This document shows, piece by piece, positions 31,838 to 39,520 of a DNA stretch of 64,000 bases. The DNA is from Nitrosopumilaceae archaeon. GTDB taxonomy: Archaea > Thermoproteota > Nitrososphaeria > Nitrososphaerales > Nitrosopumilaceae. Under the pieces are notes generated by a model, which saw nothing but the letters and a program-made list of their open reading frames with translations, searched no databases and had not been told where the DNA came from. The position numbers and the translations under genes are program-made. Each line of letters begins with the position of its first letter. Position 1 is the stretch's first letter. The stretch spans positions 320,001 to 384,000 of the forward strand of contig OZ242274.1 in the NCBI GenBank assembly GCA_965207375.1. Direction: 5' to 3'.

Positions 31838-33551
31838 GTAACAATTGAAGAAATTTTGTAACATTCCCACTTTCTAAAGTTCCTTATATAGTCAGGCAGT
31901 AAAGCATAAGGATCACCACTATCAGCATAAAATATGCTGCCAGGATTTGATCTTGAGGGAATAGATTGGAAGAATCCCGATGTCAACAGGCTTTTCGAGG
32001 TTCTTACTGAAAAATTTGATCAAATGGATAAACAAATTAAAGATCTACAAAAAGACAATCATCTAAAAGATGTAAAAAGTGAACAAGTGATTGCAGAAAA
32101 TAAACAGCTAAAAGAAGAAATGGTTCAACTAAAAAAACTCATAGCAAAGCTGCAAAAGAAAAAAACAAGATCCAGTCATGTCAGTAGCTATAACACCAGA
32201 GAGTACAAGGGATACCCAAAGATCAAAAAACAAAAGACACAGCCAAAATATACACAGCAAGAATCTGAGACTAACAATCTAACCATAGATCACAAGTTTT
32301 GTCCACAATGTGGTAATGCTCTTGCAGATTCATCAAGCAAATACACCAGAAACGGTGAATCAATAATAGACGGCAAATGGTCTAACGTCAATATGACCAT
32401 TGTAGGCAGATACTGCAAAAAATGTGCACAAATGCAATATGCAAAACCTGTTGACTTTTTGTCCAATGAAAAATTTAGCATCACTATAATGGCAAGAATT
32501 TCTACAATGAGACACCTGACTATATCGTATGGCAAAATACAGAAACTCTTGCAGATGTTTTACGGCAAAAATATGGCAATCTCTACACTAGAAAGACTTG
32601 ATGCGCAAGCCTCAAAATGCCTAGAACCGCTCTACTATTCGCTTCTTGATGAGATTACCAAGGCAAAAATCGTAGGAGGTGATGAAACAGGATGGTATCT
32701 AAACGGCAAACTATGCTGGGCATGGGTGTTTCATTCGATATACACGGTAGTATATCACATCTCACAATCTAGAAGCAAAATGGTATCTGAGACGTTTCTA
32801 AAGGATTTTGAGGGCATACTAATGGGTGACTCTCATCCTGGATGGAGTGTTGCAGACATACTTCAAAAATGCCTGCTACACTATTTCAGGGACATGTACA
32901 GAACGCTTGAAAAAAATGACAAAAAAGAATTTCAGAGCTTCTTTGATGAACTATACAAGATACTAAAATCTGCAATAAAGCTTGGCAAAAAACATGACAC
33001 AGTACAGGACATTGCAAAGGGCAGTATAACCAAACTGCAAAAAAGAATCAATGCACTTGCTACAGGAACATATGAGGATGAAGATTGTCTCATATATGTA
33101 AAGCGACTAAAGCGTGAGGGTAACTCTTTGCTGACATTTCTAAAATATGATGGCGTGCCGTACCACAACAACGCAAGCGAGCAGGCAATGCGCATATTTG
33201 CCATAATGCGAAAAGTATTCTACGGTAGTCGCTCAGAGAAAGGCCTCAAAACCACAGAGATACGTCAAAGCATATTTGCCACATGTGAAAGGCGCGATGT
33301 AAATCCGTATCCGTTTGTCAAGGAATATCTGCGTGGCAATATCAAAGAAATCCCCATGCCAAAAGTCACAGTTGCTGCATGATATAATCAAATGTACAGT
33401 GTATAATACACAAAATTTGATGCTGTATGATCATTTCTATAGTCTGGATATGTTCTGTGCCGGTTCATTGTCGTAAACTGCACTAGGGTTTTGCATGCAG
33501 TTTCATGGATCATCTAAAAACCAGAGTAACTTCAGAAGGTCGATCTGTTAC
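31838..33551 (+). mobile_element. Second IS66-family element (different isoform)
   Basis: Imperfect ends GTAACAATTGA / TCGATCTGTTAC; no matching 8-bp TSD, so the left boundary is uncertain. Confidence 0.65.
31934..33382 (+). CDS. IS66 family transposase
   Basis: Coiled coil, CPQCG zinc finger, GDETGW, QKCLLHYFR, HNNASEQAMR. Confidence 0.92.
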   Translation: MLPGFDLEGIDWKNPDVNRLFEVLTEKFDQMDKQIKDLQKDNHLKDVKSEQVIAENKQLKEEMVQLKKLIAKLQKKKTRSSHVSSYNTREYKGYPKIKKQKTQPKYTQQESETNNLTIDHKFCPQCGNALADSSSKYTRNGESIIDGKWSNVNMTIVGRYCKKCAQMQYAKPVDFLSNEKFSITIMARISTMRHLTISYGKIQKLLQMFYGKNMAISTLERLDAQASKCLEPLYYSLLDEITKAKIVGGDETGWYLNGKLCWAWVFHSIYTVVYHISQSRSKMVSETFLKDFEGILMGDSHPGWSVADILQKCLLHYFRDMYRTLEKNDKKEFQSFFDELYKILKSAIKLGKKHDTVQDIAKGSITKLQKRINALATGTYEDEDCLIYVKRLKREGNSLLTFLKYDGVPYHNNASEQAMRIFAIMRKVFYGSRSEKGLKTTEIRQSIFATCERRDVNPYPFVKEYLRGNIKEIPMPKVTVAA

Positions 33552-34155
33552 GATTTCTCTTAGAGTACAGTAGCAAGTACGATGATCCTTGTGTAAAATA
33601 TTCAGAGATAGCAAAATATTTTTTCAAATACTATTGGCTACAAGAATGTAAATCAAAGCTACGACAGGGACCACAAAATCAGGCAGTTGGAGTAATAGAA
33701 AAGATAAGAGAGGAATTCAAAAAAGATTCGTATCCTGAAACGTTTGAGGAGATAGAAAAAGAAGAAGAACAAAAAATAAAAAATTGCATTAAAAAAATCA
33801 CCCCCATATGCCGCAAGGACGTAATACACAGATTTCAGGGGAAACGTGAGGAGAGTAAGATATTTTACAAGTATTTTGCCAAAGATTACAAGGACAAGTC
33901 AGGTAACATGGGAACAGATCCCAAGGGTGGTATACTGTTAAACCCAGACGCAATGCGATTCTTCAAAAGAAACTTTGTACCGCTATACAAGTCAGTAATT
34001 CTTGAATGGATACGTTTTCTTGACAAGAAAAATTTTGGTGTGCCGTATATAGTAGACAAAATAGAGGGAAACAATACAGGCCCAAGGGATCAGAAAAGAT
34101 TCCTCAAATATCTTAAACTGTTTGAGGATAGGTGTTTTTACTGTAATGACTCTTT
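33552..34155 (+). pseudogene. HNH endonuclease, 5' part (N-terminus removed by the upstream IS66)
   Basis: Stop-free frame FLLEY...KYYW...CFYCNDSL ending at the IS66 TSD. Confidence 0.85.
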
Positions 34156-35649
34156 GTACTTGTTCACCTATTTTTGAGCATTTTTGGCCCTAAATGTACC
34201 GAACCAGCTCTGCTAGATAATCCTGTCCCAGATTCTTCCAGGTAGTAACACACGTATACAGATTGCCTCTACGCTCCATACTTTTTTCAGATCTGAGACA
34301 TCCACGTATTCTCCTGCACACGACATACTCACGCAGGCTCTGCTCTGCAAGATTGCTTGTAGATGGTATACGAGGGTCTATGACAAACCGGAACATGTCA
34401 GGTATGGCCCGTGACAGTTTTGCTACAAATTTACCCACAATTTCATCATTGGCATACCTTTTGACAAGGTTACGTGTTCTTTTTTCCAATTGTACAGCAT
34501 ATGATTCTCTGTAATCAGGTGGTTTGTCTAGGACATGTTTGCCGTCATGGTATATTTTCTGTAGGCATTGTAGTGTATTTTTTGCAATTTTAGAATCTGG
34601 ATTCTTTTGTGATATTGTTTTGATTTCACGTATTAGGTGCGCGTTACATCTCTGGATGATATATCTGCGGTATGGAGGCCATCCGTCACAGGTAATGATT
34701 ATATCTTGTGAGTCACCTATTATTTCCTTGAGTACGTCTGCTCCTCTGCTGGGATTAATTATATAGAAATTCTCACTTGTAATTGGATTATGAAACGTCC
34801 ACAACCATATAGTCTTTCCATGCAGTCGCTCTGATGTCTCATCTGCTATCAGAATCTCGGCTTCCTGTATCTTTTCTTTTATCTCATTTGCAGGCACAAA
34901 TAACGCATCAGAGACTGTATCTATGATGTTTTGAATACCTCCTTCAGATATTTCGATTCCACGTCTTTTCATGGCCTCCTTGTTCATACGTACCGGCATG
35001 CGATGTATGTGATTATCCATTATCTCCTTTATCACTTCATTTCCAAACTGACCCTTTTTTGGAATGTCAACCTCGGGTGTAATGTCAGTAGCTCCACAGC
35101 AGTTGCAATGATACCCATGAATCTTGTGCTTGCAAGTATGTGGAGGAGGAGTTTTCACAATATCAGTTATTATCCTGATTTTGGTGTCTGTATGGTGTAT
35201 GTCTTGAGAACCACACTTGGTACACGTGTCTAATTTGTGCTCTTTTTCTTCATCTACTTTGACCTTGCGGGCTACACCTGTGCGACCAGGTTGTCCTCCC
35301 TGTTTTTTTCCAGTAGATTTTTTGTTCTCTGCACGTATTTTGCGGTCCTGCTTGCGTGTAATGGAATCCTTAGATGGAGGAGTATTGGAATTGTCATGAT
35401 AGTTGTCACGTTTGGTAAGCTCTTGAATTTTTTTATCTTTTTGTAGTAGGAGGTCATCTTTTTGTAATATGATTTTTTGTAAACTTGATACTAGAGATTC
35501 AAGAAGAAGGACTTTTCGGTGTTCCTTTTTGTATGCACTTTTCCAGTTGATGGTACTCATTATACAACTTGTGAGTCAGAATGATTTAGATCTGATGGTG
35601 ATCAAAATTTGAACAAATGGTGAAATTGTAGACACCACGTGAACAAGTA
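34156..35649 (-). mobile_element. IS66 element copy 2; last base of its TIR displaced to 37071 by an IS110 insertion
   Basis: Near-identical to 16637-18129; TSD GACTCTTT at 34148-34155 and 37072-37079. Confidence 0.95.
34190..35560 (-). CDS. IS66 family transposase (intact)
   Basis: 456-aa ORF with leucine zipper, zinc finger and DDE motifs. Confidence 0.93.
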   Translation of the reverse strand: MSTINWKSAYKKEHRKVLLLESLVSSLQKIILQKDDLLLQKDKKIQELTKRDNYHDNSNTPPSKDSITRKQDRKIRAENKKSTGKKQGGQPGRTGVARKVKVDEEKEHKLDTCTKCGSQDIHHTDTKIRIITDIVKTPPPHTCKHKIHGYHCNCCGATDITPEVDIPKKGQFGNEVIKEIMDNHIHRMPVRMNKEAMKRRGIEISEGGIQNIIDTVSDALFVPANEIKEKIQEAEILIADETSERLHGKTIWLWTFHNPITSENFYIINPSRGADVLKEIIGDSQDIIITCDGWPPYRRYIIQRCNAHLIREIKTISQKNPDSKIAKNTLQCLQKIYHDGKHVLDKPPDYRESYAVQLEKRTRNLVKRYANDEIVGKFVAKLSRAIPDMFRFVIDPRIPSTSNLAEQSLREYVVCRRIRGCLRSEKSMERRGNLYTCVTTWKNLGQDYLAELVRYI

Positions 35650-35751
35650 TCCATGTGCCATATTATTAAAAATTCCCCACGTTTTTAATCCCGACATGTA
35701 TCCATGTGCCATATTATTAAAAATTCCCCACGTTTTTAATCCCGACATGTA
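35650..35751. repeat. Exact 51-bp tandem duplication of the IS110 right end
   Basis: TCCATGTGCC...CCCGACATGTA at 35650-35700 and 35701-35751. Confidence 0.95.
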
Positions 35752-35912
35752 TGGCATAGCCTAATTCTAATTTCCAAACCGCAAGGGTCCAAAGATAAAG
35801 AAGCGAATACTTATCCATCCGAGTCAATCGCAATGATTACTCATTATCATTCTTCATTCTTTTATCAGGCATACTGCAATTACAAAACGAGGCAACAAAC
35901 TAGGTCTGTTCC
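35701..35912 (-). ncRNA. Candidate IS110 bridge/seek RNA
   Basis: Three predicted hairpins; internal loop carries an 8-nt match to the element circle junction. Confidence 0.55.
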
Positions 35913-37061
35913 TCATACATGTTCCCGCAACCGGGTATCCTGACTGTAATTTGTAATAAACTCTCTTCTCTCCTTGAGCATTGTGTGAATCATTCGTAAC
36001 ATCTTAGAAGCAGCAGCAACTGTTGCCTTTGATGTTCCTCTCTTTTTTGCAATCCTTATGAAAAATTTTGAAATATCAGAATTTGGTGCACACCTTACAT
36101 GAGACAGGACACTTTCTACTAGAACCCATCTGCATATGTTGCTTCCAGTATGTGTTATGTGTCCATAGTGTACCGTGTTTCCTGATGATCTAACCGATGG
36201 AACCACACCAATATACGAGCACAGCTTGTGTGATTTGACAAATCTTTCAATTCCGTCTATTGTACATGATATCACCAGTGCAGTATATGCTCCAACTCCT
36301 GGAATGCTTTGTAGTAAAGTTGCATCTTCATTTTCCTTTGCTGCCTGACGTATTCTGGCATCAGACTGGAGTATTTTGTCATTGATGAACGTAATTATAT
36401 CCAAATACGCATTTATCCTATAGTCATTTATTGCTCTGACCTGTGCAAGCCAAGGCGTGTAAAATGGTGCACCTGAGGGCTGGATTGATTTTTGTAGTAA
36501 AATTCCATGGACTGAATTTTTCAACCCTGTTCTGTGACGGACCAGAGTATATCGATAGTTTACCAAATCCCTGTTGTCCATGTTTTGTGCTGAGGGCACG
36601 TGGCACGGTATAGTGTATCCTCCTCTGAGTAAATCTGCTAGAATTTTAGCATCTACCTTGTCTGTCTTCTTTTTGGATTCTGCAATGAGTCTATTCATAC
36701 GAGGATTGGACAGTATGACATCTAGGTGTAACTTGTCTCTTATTTGAAAAAATGCAGCCTTCCATACAGATGAGGATTCAATTACTAGTTTTGAATTTGG
36801 ATGTATGTATCCTAGGCAATCCTTGATGTCCTCTGGATTGTTTCGTATCTTCTTGTTGGCCAGTTCATTACCGTCTGCATCCATGATAGATATCTGAATG
36901 GTCTTTTTGTGAACGTCTAGACCGACAAAACAGGGTTCCATAGATACCCTCAATTTTACGGTTTTGTGTTTGTTTGCATTGGTGCTTGAGCGGGATCTTG
37001 TAGAACGGGATCTTGTAGAACTTGGACTACTGCCATCATCTAATTTCCTTGATCGGGGCAC
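35913..37061 (-). CDS. IS110 family DEDD recombinase (start may be ATG at 36941)
   Basis: GLDVHK, IESSS, KKTDKVDA (DEDD); SIPGVG, RSSG serine, VAAASKM. Confidence 0.93.
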   Translation of the reverse strand: MPRSRKLDDGSSPSSTRSRSTRSRSSTNANKHKTVKLRVSMEPCFVGLDVHKKTIQISIMDADGNELANKKIRNNPEDIKDCLGYIHPNSKLVIESSSVWKAAFFQIRDKLHLDVILSNPRMNRLIAESKKKTDKVDAKILADLLRGGYTIPCHVPSAQNMDNRDLVNYRYTLVRHRTGLKNSVHGILLQKSIQPSGAPFYTPWLAQVRAINDYRINAYLDIITFINDKILQSDARIRQAAKENEDATLLQSIPGVGAYTALVISCTIDGIERFVKSHKLCSYIGVVPSVRSSGNTVHYGHITHTGSNICRWVLVESVLSHVRCAPNSDISKFFIRIAKKRGTSKATVAAASKMLRMIHTMLKERREFITNYSQDTRLREHV

Positions 37062-37071
37062 ATATGATTAC

Positions 37072-37434
37072 GACTCTTTAAAGTTTGATAGCAAGACTCA
37101 CGTTGATCACGTGATTCCGTTTGATTACATCGGCGATACGAAAATGTGGAATTTGGTTTTGTCCTGTCAAAAATGTAACTGTGAAAAGCTTGGTAACCTG
37201 CCTCCCTGCTACTTTGTCAAAAGACTGACAAATCGCAATAAAAAATTTAAAAAAATAACTAACGAAGAATTAAACAAAAGCAATGACCGGAAAACTAAAA
37301 AGAACATGAAGGACATAAAGGAGATGCTAGACATGGAGGGCAAAGAGAATCTTGACTGGCATTATGCAAATGCAACCAACCATGGATATCCCATATTGAA
37401 TAACTTTCCAAAAAAAATCAAACGAATTATTTAA
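37072..37434 (+). pseudogene. HNH endonuclease, 3' part
   Basis: DSLKFDSKTHVDHVIPF...WNLVLSCQKCNCEK joins in frame with the 5' part through the TSD. Confidence 0.85.
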
Positions 37435-37511
37435 AAATATTATACAGACTAAATTGGATGTAAAATTTATGATTTTGTTATTTTTTATGCATGCTAATAT
37501 ACAATCACAAA

Positions 37512-37580
37512 TACGGAATATACAGGTTTTCACTGCCAATGCTACGGAATATACAGGTTTTCACTGCCAATGCTACGGAA
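37512..37580. repeat. 31-bp tandem duplication (2.2 copies)
   Basis: TACGGAATATACAGGTTTTCACTGCCAATGC x2 plus TACGGAA. Confidence 0.9.
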
Positions 37581-37764
37581 CTATATTCTGAACAGAATGA
37601 CTAGTTTACACTAGACAAAAATGGGAAATCTTTTAGAATCAAATCATAGAGACAAAAATCCTTTACAAAAAAGTTACCTATGGATGATGCTCAATGATGA
37701 TTGTACAAACTAAGACATGATGACATGTTAGATCTGGGCACGGATTGTCGCTCTTCACGTAAAT

Positions 37765-37865
37765 CAGCTAAACGAAATGTGGACAAAATAGGTCAAAATC
37801 TACCCCAAAATGCAAATAGAATAATAGGGGCGAGGTAAGAATTTGGGTCACATTTTTCTTAGCTG
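37765..37865 (-). mobile_element. ~100-bp MITE, copy 2 (inverted)
   Basis: CAGCTAAACGAAATGTG...CACATTTTTCTTAGCTG; reverse-complement homolog of the other copies. Confidence 0.78.
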
Positions 37866-38702
37866 ATCTGTGGGAACTTTTGATATCAAACCCGCATGTT
37901 TTGCTAAAAGTACCCCGATCAGTATGGCCACTGCAATAATTACTATGGTTCCAGAGGGTGCAGTACTGTAATAGTATGACAAAAGAATTCCGCTTATCAC
38001 AGATACAACTGAAATGCACATTGATATTCCAATTGTCTTTTTAAAGCCCTTTCCAAACATCATTGCAGAAATGTTTGGGATGACGACAAGAGCAGATATC
38101 AACAAAATGCCAACTAGTCTCATTGAGGTCACGACTGTTATAGATGCAAGTATGACAAATGCATAGTTTAACAAGGTGACTGGCAGTCCTGCAAGTTTAG
38201 CTTGCTCTTCATTAAATGTTAGTTGCAGGAACTGTTTTTGCAGTAAAACCAAGGTGATAATAATGCCCGTACTGATTGTAAGAATAATTATCATGTCCTC
38301 GTGACTTATCAGTAAAATACTTCCAAAGAGAAAGCTAAACAGATCGACTGAAAAACCGCCTGATGCGCTAATCAAAATAACACCGATTGACAGTCCAGAG
38401 ACTAAAACCACGGCTACTGCTGCATCTCCAGATATCTTTGTGCTTTGTCTAAGCTTTTGTAATCCTAATCCTCCCAAAATGGAAACAATGAATGCAGTCC
38501 AAAGCGGAAATATCCCTAGAACCAGACCTACCGATATTCCACCAAATGCAACATGTGCAATGCCGTCTCCAAATAATGAATATCTTCGAAGTACAAGAAA
38601 TGTGCCCATAAAAGAACAAATCAGGGCAACCGCAATTCCTGAGATCAGTGCTTTTTGAATGAATCCATAAGAGAGTACTTCAAGAACCATTTGGTAGATC
38701 AC
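37848..38702 (-). CDS. znuB: Zn/Mn ABC transporter permease
   Basis: VLRRYSLFGDGIAH, FLFGSIL, VGILLISAL. Confidence 0.88.
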   Translation of the reverse strand: MIYQMVLEVLSYGFIQKALISGIAVALICSFMGTFLVLRRYSLFGDGIAHVAFGGISVGLVLGIFPLWTAFIVSILGGLGLQKLRQSTKISGDAAVAVVLVSGLSIGVILISASGGFSVDLFSFLFGSILLISHEDMIIILTISTGIIITLVLLQKQFLQLTFNEEQAKLAGLPVTLLNYAFVILASITVVTSMRLVGILLISALVVIPNISAMMFGKGFKKTIGISMCISVVSVISGILLSYYYSTAPSGTIVIIAVAILIGVLLAKHAGLISKVPTDQLRKM

Positions 38703-38710
38703 CTAAAATT

Positions 38711-39520
38711 TCAATGCATGTTATGGTGATGCATATGCATCTGCATCGATGATTCTGTGTATGTTTTTAAAAGTTCCTCATCAGAGAAGAATTTGTCTTT
38801 TTGTCCATGAAAGAACATTTTTTTGTTCATACATGCAACTTTGTTTGCATGTTTTGATATGGCATCAAGGTCATGAGACGACCAAATAATGGTAATTTTG
38901 TTTTCTTTATTTATCTTTTTGATAACATTATAGAATTTTGTTTGTGATTCAACATCTACACTAGTTACAGGTTCATCTAGAATAAGCAACACGGGATCTT
39001 TTACAAGTGATTTTGCAATAAAAACACGTTGTAGTTCTCCTCCGGATAACTCGCCAATTCTTCTGTTTCGCAAAGCTTCGAGTCCTACCGTCCTTAGAGC
39101 CTCAGTTACTTTGTCACTACTGTTTGTAATTTTTTTGTATACCCTATTCCAGCAACAGTCACATTGTTGAATCAGTTTGGTTCCCTTGAGGAGTTTGTTA
39201 TCAGATACTATTCCCATAGACACTATATCATATACGGTGGCAGGGAAATTCGGTTCAAATGTTACTTCTTGAGGCACGTAACCAATTAATGGCAATAGAG
39301 AACGATGCTTTGATCCTTCAAATCCAAATAGTTTGATTTTCCCAGAATACTGCTGTAATCCTAAAATTGCCCTAAACAGTGTGGTTTTACCTGCACCATT
39401 TGGTCCAACAATTCCAAGCAAATCTCCCTCACGCACATCAAAACTGATCTGTTCAACTGCCAGATGATTGTTATAACCTACATTAAGATCTTTTACATCT
39501 AGTACACTGGTCATTGACAT
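38711..39520 (-). CDS. znuC: Zn/Mn ABC transporter ATP-binding protein
   Basis: GPNGAGKTT, GYVPQ, LSGGELQR, ILDEP, SHD. Confidence 0.9.
   Translation of the reverse strand: MSMTSVLDVKDLNVGYNNHLAVEQISFDVREGDLLGIVGPNGAGKTTLFRAILGLQQYSGKIKLFGFEGSKHRSLLPLIGYVPQEVTFEPNFPATVYDIVSMGIVSDNKLLKGTKLIQQCDCCWNRVYKKITNSSDKVTEALRTVGLEALRNRRIGELSGGELQRVFIAKSLVKDPVLLILDEPVTSVDVESQTKFYNVIKKINKENKITIIWSSHDLDAISKHANKVACMNKKMFFHGQKDKFFSDEELLKTYTESSMQMHMHHHNMH

Follow-up and report, generated by a model that had tools for sequence, protein, structure and literature searches.

The window analysed here is a 64-kb stretch of contig OZ242274.1 from an ammonia-oxidising archaeon, and positions are given in its own numbering unless a contig or locus is named. 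On its minus strand, at 35650-37069, lies an IS110-family insertion sequence (IS), and the segment 35801-35946 of the same strand is very probably the bridge RNA (seekRNA) of this IS1111-type element. One of its loops would hold the junction of the excised circle and the other the target, the tip of an IS66-family element, an assignment that draws on comparison of related sequences. We observed the element ends, the core, the empty site, a conserved RNA structure and covariation of the loops with both the element ends and the flanks. The RNA is presumably made, probably by cutting from the transposase transcript, and bound by the recombinase, and the strand-exchange chemistry would be that of IS621 by homology. 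An original prediction from the window sequence had proposed a bridge-type guide RNA at the 3' end of an IS110-family element, and the conserved helices and a hit of covariance model R2 (described below) bear this out.

The host genome (4.3 Mb, about 37-38% G+C) holds one full copy of the element. An archaeal small-subunit (SSU) ribosomal RNA model scores 1444.9 bits against 1086.2 bits for the bacterial model at the same locus, and the genome encodes an archaeal AmoA (382 bits). Hence, the host is an ammonia-oxidising archaeon, in agreement with the archaeal origin that had been predicted.

Element, Landing Site and Recombinase

The element and its landing site comprise the following features.

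35650-37069, minus strand: IS110-family insertion sequence of IS1111-like layout, 1420 bp, between two TA copies
34156-35649, plus strand: target, an IS66-family element (Pfam DDE_Tnp_IS66), 1495 bp including the C at 37072
35648-35649, no strand: TA core copy at the right-end junction, also within the IS66 tip GTAC (junction comparison)
37070-37071, no strand: TA core copy at the left-end junction (junction comparison)
37058-37069, minus strand: left end ATCATATGTGCC, sub-terminal inverted repeat to the right end GGCACATGGA
35913-36941, minus strand: DEDD transposase/recombinase open reading frame (ORF), 342 amino acids from ATG, with Pfam IS110 domains

The IS66-family element has a single transposase ORF of 456 amino acids, the repeat tip GTACTTGTTCAC and an 8-bp target duplication, and it is present in ten full-length copies, including that in the window, which share 98.7-100% identity. 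The other nine copies start with GTACTTGTTCAC, end with GTGAACAAGTAC (GTAC) and are bordered by 8-bp target duplications. The window copy stops with ...GAACAAGTA at 35649, and the missing C followed by gactcttt resumes at 37072-37080, the 8-bp duplication gactcttt standing at 34148-34155 and again at 37073-37080. The insert is placed exactly between GTA and C of the repeat tip, and 35650-37071 was inserted into an IS66 tip that was already complete.

The nine intact IS66 copies supply the empty site and thus establish the element ends and the TA core. In the empty site rebuilt from them, TA is the sole sequence common to both junctions; the element therefore extends over 35650-37069 and its core is TA, as the original prediction had it. 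Insertion without target duplication beyond the shared core dinucleotide is the behaviour of the IS110 family. Sub-terminal inverted repeats were found by eye, ATGTGCC at a distance of 5 nucleotides (nt) from the left terminus and GGCACAT at 3 nt from the right one; they are kept in relatives, and their length is within the 7-17 bp of IS1111 elements. Again as in that group, the transposase is followed by the longer of the two non-coding regions. The right end measures 263 nt (212 nt without a duplication described below), and the left end measures 128 nt when counted to the ATG, or 8 nt when counted to an in-frame GTG at 37061, which would extend the recombinase to 382 amino acids. By its protein family, layout, sub-terminal repeats, core logic and guide order, 35650-37069 is classed as an IS110-family element of IS1111 type.

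The recombinase matches the Pfam domains DEDD_Tnp_IS110 (2.6e-23, 83 bits) and Transposase_20 (1.4e-18, 67.5 bits), both above the curated cut-offs. Its motifs GLD, IE, TDKVD and SSG align with GID, IE, TDTVD and ESG of IS621, which are the D, E, D, D and S columns, to which passages of PMC11208158 assign the catalytic roles. The closest solved relatives are ISCro4 (1e-9) and IS621 (8.4e-8), and among named transposases the nearest are haloarchaeal, ISHvo9-like ones, 33-35% identical across 93-97% of the protein. In a sample of 301 genomes from the taxonomic family of the host, 31 encode a relative of the protein, that of the window included, and past the stop codon these relatives show a clear common pattern.

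Traces of further insertions are found in the host genome. About ten truncated left ends lie elsewhere, each preceded by TA, and a G precedes the TA in 10 of 11 left-end copies or fragments, counting the window. A remnant at C1:579632 has the right-end tip joined to TA plus CTTGTTCACGT, again an IS66-type repeat. Exact IS66 repeat tips number 52 in the genome, all unoccupied except that in the window. When four DNA contig sets were compared with 35300-37400, contigs were seen to break at repeats, and no circle junction or empty site was found among them.

A Conserved Two-Loop RNA

The RNA core consists of five helices (P1-P5), which form two internal loops. Compensatory changes listed for P1 refer to alignment A3 (see below).

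35801-35946, minus strand: conserved two-loop core of the putative bridge RNA (P1-P5), 87.2 bits with model R1 and 73.2 bits with model R2
35939-35944, minus strand: P1 5' strand, pairs with 35864-35869, 5 of 6 pairs compensatory in A3
35864-35869, minus strand: P1 3' strand, pairs with 35939-35944
35926-35930, minus strand: P2 5' strand, closes the target-binding loop, 4 of 4 modelled pairs compensatory
35874-35878, minus strand: P2 3' strand, pairs with 35926-35930
35888-35915, minus strand: P3, hairpin of the target loop, in which AACAGAC/GTTTGTT is a lineage-specific extension
35855-35859, minus strand: P4 5' strand, closes the donor-binding loop, pairs with 35805-35809
35805-35809, minus strand: P4 3' strand, pairs with 35855-35859
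35820-35843, minus strand: P5, hairpin of the donor loop, two pairs of which switch between AU and GC in about half of the distinct RNAs

The helices were drawn from a MAFFT alignment of 25 RNAs (A2), in which 96.6% of 619 cells are paired as compared to 36-46% with the partners slid. Compensatory changes occur at 15 of the 25 pairs, and none of 500 column shuffles reached the observed covariation. Covariance model R1, built from A2, finds four copies in the genome of the window and copies in each of the 18 genomes that have a protein match of at least 40% identity, up to 33 per genome. The 81 distinct RNAs among 108 hits form alignment A3, which is 97.1% paired with 19 of 25 pairs compensatory; again, the observed value was reached by none of 500 shuffles. 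Model R2 leaves out the window RNA, its two nearest RNA relatives (L033 and L034) and a local chimera, and its single hit in the window is 35801-35946 on the minus strand (73.2 bits, E 5.7e-16). Overall, the models have 126-127 positions and the RNA family comprises more than 100 copies in 19 genomes, counting that of the window; locus L054 (genome G227) is excluded from every alignment, count and claim.

All five helices of the window copy are intact, and P3 and P5 each close with a U-G pair. On the 3' sides of the loops, UA stands four and three bases ahead of the closing stem in 66 of 67 distinct target loops and in 56 of 67 donor loops. A conserved structured RNA with internal loops in the non-coding end is the arrangement by which bridge RNAs and seekRNAs are recognised. 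About the first 34 nt of the core lie inside the 3' end of the transposase ORF and some 112 nt beyond it. In most relatives the stop codon, TAG, falls within P1; the window has CAG at this place and the frame continues to a TGA (35913-35915) at the foot of P3.

The position of the RNA differs from that originally predicted. The proposed range of 35701-35912 cuts the RNA, since the core spans 35801-35946 and 35701-35800 falls outside the two-loop core, and the RNA does not begin at 35912 but about 35 nt inside the transposase ORF. Several structural details hold nevertheless. All five sequence strings quoted in the prediction lie where it had placed them or within the ranges it gave, and those of its 5' hairpin, AACAGAC (35904-35910) and GTTTGTT (35894-35900), belong to P3 of the target loop. 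The inner hairpin is present at 35820-35843 in the single-sequence fold and corresponds to P5. The long stem around it likewise has its enclosing stem in that fold, but is only in part a conserved helix, namely P4 (35855-35859/35805-35809), because GAAU occurs twice in the window and the single-sequence fold takes the other register.

A small third hairpin after the donor loop (CUAGCGAAAGCCAU, about 35745-35760) was considered and is not claimed; it is weak, with 81% of cells paired and 16 of 500 shuffles reaching its score. An alternative or extended pairing of the conserved GAAGA of the donor loop with CAUCUU-like segments downstream was noticed by eye and is not claimed either.

Donor-Binding Loop

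In the proposed mechanism, each loop's 5' side would pair with the top strand to the right of the TA core, and the 3' side, which has the sequence of the core and of the top strand left of it, would hence pair with the bottom strand. The second loop (35810-35819 and 35844-35854) would read the joined ends of the excised circle, ...ATGGA-TA-ATCAT..., while the first loop (35879-35887 and 35916-35925) would read G-TA-CTTGTTC (G-TA-CTTGTTCAC), the outer tip of the inverted repeats of the IS66 family. The recombinase would exchange strands at TA, and the element would be left between two TA copies. The two sides of the donor loop are as follows.

35810-35819, minus strand: 3' side of the donor loop, GAUGGAUAAG, equal to right end ATGGA plus TA plus A, predicted to pair with the bottom strand
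35844-35854, minus strand: 5' side of the donor loop, AAGAAUGAUAA, whose AUGAU is predicted to pair with the left-end top strand ATCAT

The donor loop changes together with the element ends. Position 4 of the loop agrees with position -3 of the right end in all 63 distinct RNAs compared (38 G-G, 25 A-A, 0 discordant), being G where the right end reads CATGGA and A where it reads CATAGA. At the other end, ACCAT is accompanied by AUGGU in 22 distinct RNAs, and further pairs of left end and guide are ATCAT/AUGAU (the window), ACTAT/AUAGU and GTCAT/AUGGC; ATTAC is accompanied by GUGAU through a G-T wobble. A minority of the donor 5' sides, including that of the chimeric copy, are one base off the left end. 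Covariation of a loop with the donor, here the element ends, is expected of bridge RNAs and seekRNAs. The core position is constant in the donor loop, unlike in the target loop.

The internal loop singled out by the original prediction is this donor-binding loop, as the concordance of all 63 G/A states with the right end indicates. The string ATGGATAA (35811-35818) equals the right end ATGGA plus TA plus the first left-end base, and its 8-nt identity with the circle junction stands; the junction itself can be taken as established, the empty-site comparison having located the element ends. ATGATAA (35844-35850) on the other side agrees with the other strand of the left end at six of seven positions, as had been stated.

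Two copies of the RNA occur at locus L115 (genome G044), at 1501-1626 and 1856-1981 of that locus on the same strand, 355 nt apart. Donor loops of the L115 family frequently carry UG where the core stands, in which case the right end is followed by TG in several copies.

Target-Binding Loop

The target loop was placed by homology with 80 other distinct RNAs.

35916-35925, minus strand: 5' side of the target loop, GGAACAUGUA, the putative right-target guide, predicted to pair with the top strand TA+CTTGTTC
35879-35887, minus strand: 3' side of the target loop, UUUUGUAAU (UUUUG-UA-AU), comprising the putative left-target guide, the core and two left-end bases

On the right side, the longest exact run between the loop 5' side plus its closing U and the bottom strand of core plus right flank was scored for 40 guides and 80 events (one guide containing an N was dropped from 81 events). 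The mean of group medians is 5.83 compared to 3.42 +/- 0.16 after permutation, 0 of 5000 permutations reach the observed mean, and runs of at least 7 occur in 0.4% of 2854 non-cognate pairs. On the left side, the five bases before the core match the flank at 3.21 of 5 positions compared to 1.36 +/- 0.17 permuted (0 of 5000; 35 guides, 59 events). The guide groups are kin, and the permutation tests overstate independence somewhat. In 28 of 35 guides the target 3' side ends with the same two bases that open the left end, AC accompanying AC 26 times and AU accompanying AT twice, the window included.

Family-wide, the loop thus covaries with the target flanks on both strands. Single covarying bases distinguish sister elements: AGUAAAUGUA goes with CATTTAC and AGUAAAUAUA with TATTTAC, and likewise UCGUAUGCAU goes with TGCATACG and UCUUAUGCAU with TGCATAAG. 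The comparison of loops with donor and target sites in homologues, which the original prediction had put forward as a check, therefore finds covariation on both loops. The recombinase had also been called programmable, and the sole ground for this word is the natural covariation of loops and flanks in sister elements, which suggests that it may be apt.

In the window, 8 of 10 positions of the right guide match its flank when the core takes the register that it has in the donor loop, a count that none of 79 non-cognate flanks attains. The original prediction had sought the target loop in a third hairpin at 35707-35756; this segment shows no significant or conserved structure and lies in a duplicated tail, and the target loop is the 5' arm. 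The string TACATGTC quoted from that hairpin (35744-35751, and again 35693-35700) does resemble the target, but it is a near-perfect complement of the right guide and not a guide.

Relatives of the element provide further observations on targets. A sister family in genome G176 (L155-L163), with the guide UUUUCACAU / AAACUAUAAC, has at least 8 insertions at AAC(T/C)A-TA-TGTGAATAA. In that genome the site is part of the left end of other IS110-family elements, and the sister family therefore homes into the ends of its relatives. In the host genome of the window (G000), locus L002 (C1:46900-48600) is a chimeric broken copy whose left end and N-terminal transposase half resemble the window element (88% DNA identity), while its C-terminal half and RNA resemble a second local family. 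The latter has two identical copies (C1:625-627 kb and 1528-1530 kb), 47% protein identity to the window element and the target AATCGGAAC-TA-CTG. A stretch of about 25 bp from the left flank of L043 (genome G014), TCGTTTTGAAATTTCAGGTATAATG, is found again just past the right end, either as a long direct repeat that flanks the element or because the target is repeated.

Weighing the Evidence

Several points weigh against reading 35801-35946 as a bridge RNA with donor and target guides. A search for RNA sequencing runs that contain the element returned none. Folding energy, one of the checks named in the original prediction, is no better than that of shuffled sequences for 35701-35912 (z +0.53 on the minus strand, -1.26 on the plus strand) or for 35650-35930 (z -0.53), such that this check recovers the inner hairpin and the enclosing stem but lends no energetic support. 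Alignment A3 was fitted to the R1 model and leans towards it, and the scripts that found the ends required conserved end motifs and favoured hits beside TA. The donor ends are highly conserved, so the covariation with them rests on few independent switches, and copies within one genome are kin. The 8-nt identity with the junction is of little weight by itself: 907 of 5000 dinucleotide shuffles of the 212 nt (about 18%) hold an exact 8-mer match to the 24-nt junction on either strand, and on the window sequence alone the original observation is within chance.

The guides of the window copy are also imperfect. The right guide has a U-T mismatch at +2 and another mismatch at +8, and 13 of 79 non-cognate flanks reach the length of its longest exact run (5). 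Of the five flank bases before the core, the left guide matches only 2, and it shares just G-TA-AT with the left junction; such a poor match is compatible with a target in which, past the first base of the IS66 repeat, the left half is arbitrary flank. Furthermore, the offset of the core from the P3 stem varies, being 0, 1, 2 and 3 nt in 1, 10, 8 and 2 guides, respectively, among those with runs of at least 7. A rigid ribonucleoprotein would not predict such variation, and a fixed register for the right-target guide, which had been considered, is ruled out by these offsets. The last two bases of the donor 3' side do not match the right flank beyond expectation (0.60 compared to 0.54 +/- 0.09), and therefore a full pair of handshake guides like that of IS621 is not seen. 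Finally, the single full copy has a duplicated right end and may thus be inactive.

This last point leads to the explanation that survives best next to an active system. The window copy might be a relic of the bridge RNA kind, immobile, with guides that have drifted from the abundant targets and with a duplicated right end; this is a real possibility, although on the whole we doubt it. One full copy accompanied by some ten truncated left ends and one right-end remnant would suit a relic, as would the 51-bp duplication that adds a second right end and the absence of any exact site in the genome for the perfect complement of the right guide, as compared to 52 IS66 tips of which all but one are unoccupied. 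The ORF, however, is open with its catalytic columns intact, the five helices are intact and score 87 and 73 bits, and both copies of the right end retain the terminal motif and a TATA-like box.

An improbable alternative is a seeker RNA for the target only, the ends being read by the protein through the sub-terminal repeats and the likeness of the second loop to the ends reflecting joint conservation. Passages of Siddiquee et al. (PMC11187229) describe IS1111 seekRNAs by their target matches and suggest family-dependent end recognition, and the little variation of the donor ends leaves few independent changes behind the covariation. Yet 63 of 63 G/A states are concordant and matching changes are seen at three left-end positions, and the donor loop shares the design, the lengths and the core UA of the target loop (56 of 67 and 66 of 67, respectively). 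That the RNA is an element of the 3' untranslated region acting on stability, termination or translational control of the transposase, with the loop matches as by-products, is very improbable: although the fold energy is unremarkable and no Rfam family matches (a cmscan search of 34000-39000 with E up to 10 returned only weak noise from small nucleolar RNA models away from the RNA), such an element would not explain why the loops differ between sister elements in accordance with the flanks on both sides of each insertion when the stems remain constant, and the protein is homologous to RNA-guided recombinases. A bridge RNA with a donor and a target loop is hence the reading that we favour.

Right-End Tail

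The tail of the right end holds a duplication and a TATA-like box.

35650-35700 and 35701-35751, minus strand: two tandem 51-bp copies of the right-end tail, each ending in GGCACATGGA and each with a TATA-like box
35663-35670, with a second copy at 35714-35721, minus strand: TATA-like box TTTAATAA, 14-21 nt from the right end, from the tail consensus

In relatives the right end lies about 195-250 nt past the stop codon, in agreement with the inner tail copy of the window. Each 51-bp unit is bounded by TA and begins with TACATGTC; at its start lies a 7-bp match, core included, to the right-target guide of the element itself. The recombinase may have produced the duplication by acting on a look-alike site within the element, but the match is not evidence for this, since the phase of a tandem repeat is undefined. 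A relative, L098 (genome G089), carries a 15-bp tandem duplication of its right-end tip that is also bounded by TA.

Among 51 distinct right-end tails, the consensus (C/T)TTAWAAA is found at positions -21 to -14, with T at -19 in 48 and A at -15 in 49 tails, and AA stands beside the box at -25/-24. Judged by its spacing and the archaeal consensus, the box may be an archaeal TATA box with a B recognition element (BRE) from which transcription would enter the left end only when the circle junction has formed. Folding of the final 60 nt of the right end gives a minimum free energy of -9.4 (z -0.27), and z lies below -2 in 0 of 53 distinct tails of relatives.

Neighbouring Sequences

Before the arrival of the IS110-family element, the IS66 copy had already interrupted a gene for an HNH endonuclease (33908-34155 and 37073-37434). 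Downstream of the HNH fragment, two tandem copies of a 33-bp unit, ACGGAATATACAGGTTTTCACTGCCAATGCT, occupy 37513-37578. A second, different IS66-family transposase ORF (482 amino acids) lies nearby at 31934-33382, and the genome contains more than ten repeats of its 3' flank (33300-33551).

Comparison with Known Systems

Among characterised systems, the IS1111-type elements with a seekRNA or bridge RNA (ISEc11, ISPa11, ISKpn4) share most features with the window element, namely a long non-coding region with an RNA downstream of a DEDD transposase, sub-terminal inverted repeats, loop segments that match both target strands and a core dinucleotide shared with the flanks. The guide order is also common to both, the segment complementary to the top strand lying 5' of that complementary to the bottom strand, as passages of Siddiquee et al. 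(2024; PMC11187229) describe for IS1111-type seekRNAs. According to passages of Durrant et al. (2024; PMC11208160), the bridge RNAs of IS1111 elements lie in the right end, and many IS1111 orthologues have their donor-binding bases in a multi-loop. In contrast to such a multi-loop, the donor part of the window RNA is a plain internal loop that mirrors the target loop. Further differences are the host, an archaeal ammonia oxidiser, the TA core and an RNA that starts inside the ORF. Model R1 gave no hit on the one bacterial relative searched, from Allorhizobium (4.3 bits).

With IS621 of the IS110 group (PDB 8wt6), the window element has in common two internal loops, one guide per strand, an overlap of the guides at a 2-nt core and the DEDD plus Ser catalytic columns, and the bases after the core in the target loop, which match the donor in 28 of 35 guides, recall the handshake guides of IS621. 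It differs in its low protein similarity (E 8.4e-8), in an RNA located in the right and not the left end, in the reversed guide order, in a core of TA and not CT, and in the absence of a handshake-like signal in the donor loop. Another known IS110-family element likewise homes to the terminal inverted repeat of another transposable element; here the landing site is an IS66-family tip and the host an archaeon.

The haloarchaeal ISHvo9-like elements and that of the window both encode archaeal IS110-family transposases, with the 33-35% identity given above. R1 hits in ISHvo9-like elements are weak (15.0 and 12.6 bits; E 0.025 and 0.088) and lie upstream of the ORF, not downstream. They are full-length and occupy the same place relative to both genes, at 1023-1166 of L175 (ISHvo9 on Haloferax volcanii pHV4) and at 1043-1189 of L176 (a Halorubrum ezzemoulense megaplasmid). 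By this similarity, a distantly related two-loop RNA may exist at the opposite end of ISHvo9-like elements.

Going further, the elements of ammonia-oxidising archaea might form a clade of their own that is IS1111-like, with a TA core, mirror loops, guides repeatedly rewritten in nature so as to home into IS termini (such as the IS66 tip here and the left end of the sibling element in G176), a right-target guide that works with the core 0-3 nt from the stem and a TATA box that meets the gene only through the circle junction, and in which the 51-bp duplication is a footprint of the recombinase. We put this forward tentatively, at a little less than even confidence. The site of the duplication would then be GCCA-TA-CATGTC, with a guide match of 7 bp including the core.

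Significance

To our knowledge, function of bridge or seeker RNAs has been demonstrated for bacterial elements only. On the protein level, 662 archaeal IS110 recombinases are counted in Vaysset et al. (2024). The listings and abstracts returned by a full-text literature search mention no guide RNAs of archaeal IS110 recombinases and no such elements of ammonia oxidisers; this negative is not proof, and archaeal elements with predicted RNAs may already appear in the tables that Durrant et al. and Siddiquee et al. compiled across ISfinder.

The RNA family is defined by its loops, core, ends and natural targets, which are given for dozens of elements, and the single-base changes shared by guide and target between sister elements amount to a natural reprogramming series. 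The AT-rich, mesophilic orthologues with a TA core would add to the toolbox of bridge recombinases. We know of no genetic system for ammonia-oxidising archaea, and therefore a resident programmable recombinase would be a plausible starting point for one. Moreover, these elements show archaeal insertion sequences using the ends of others as landing sites.

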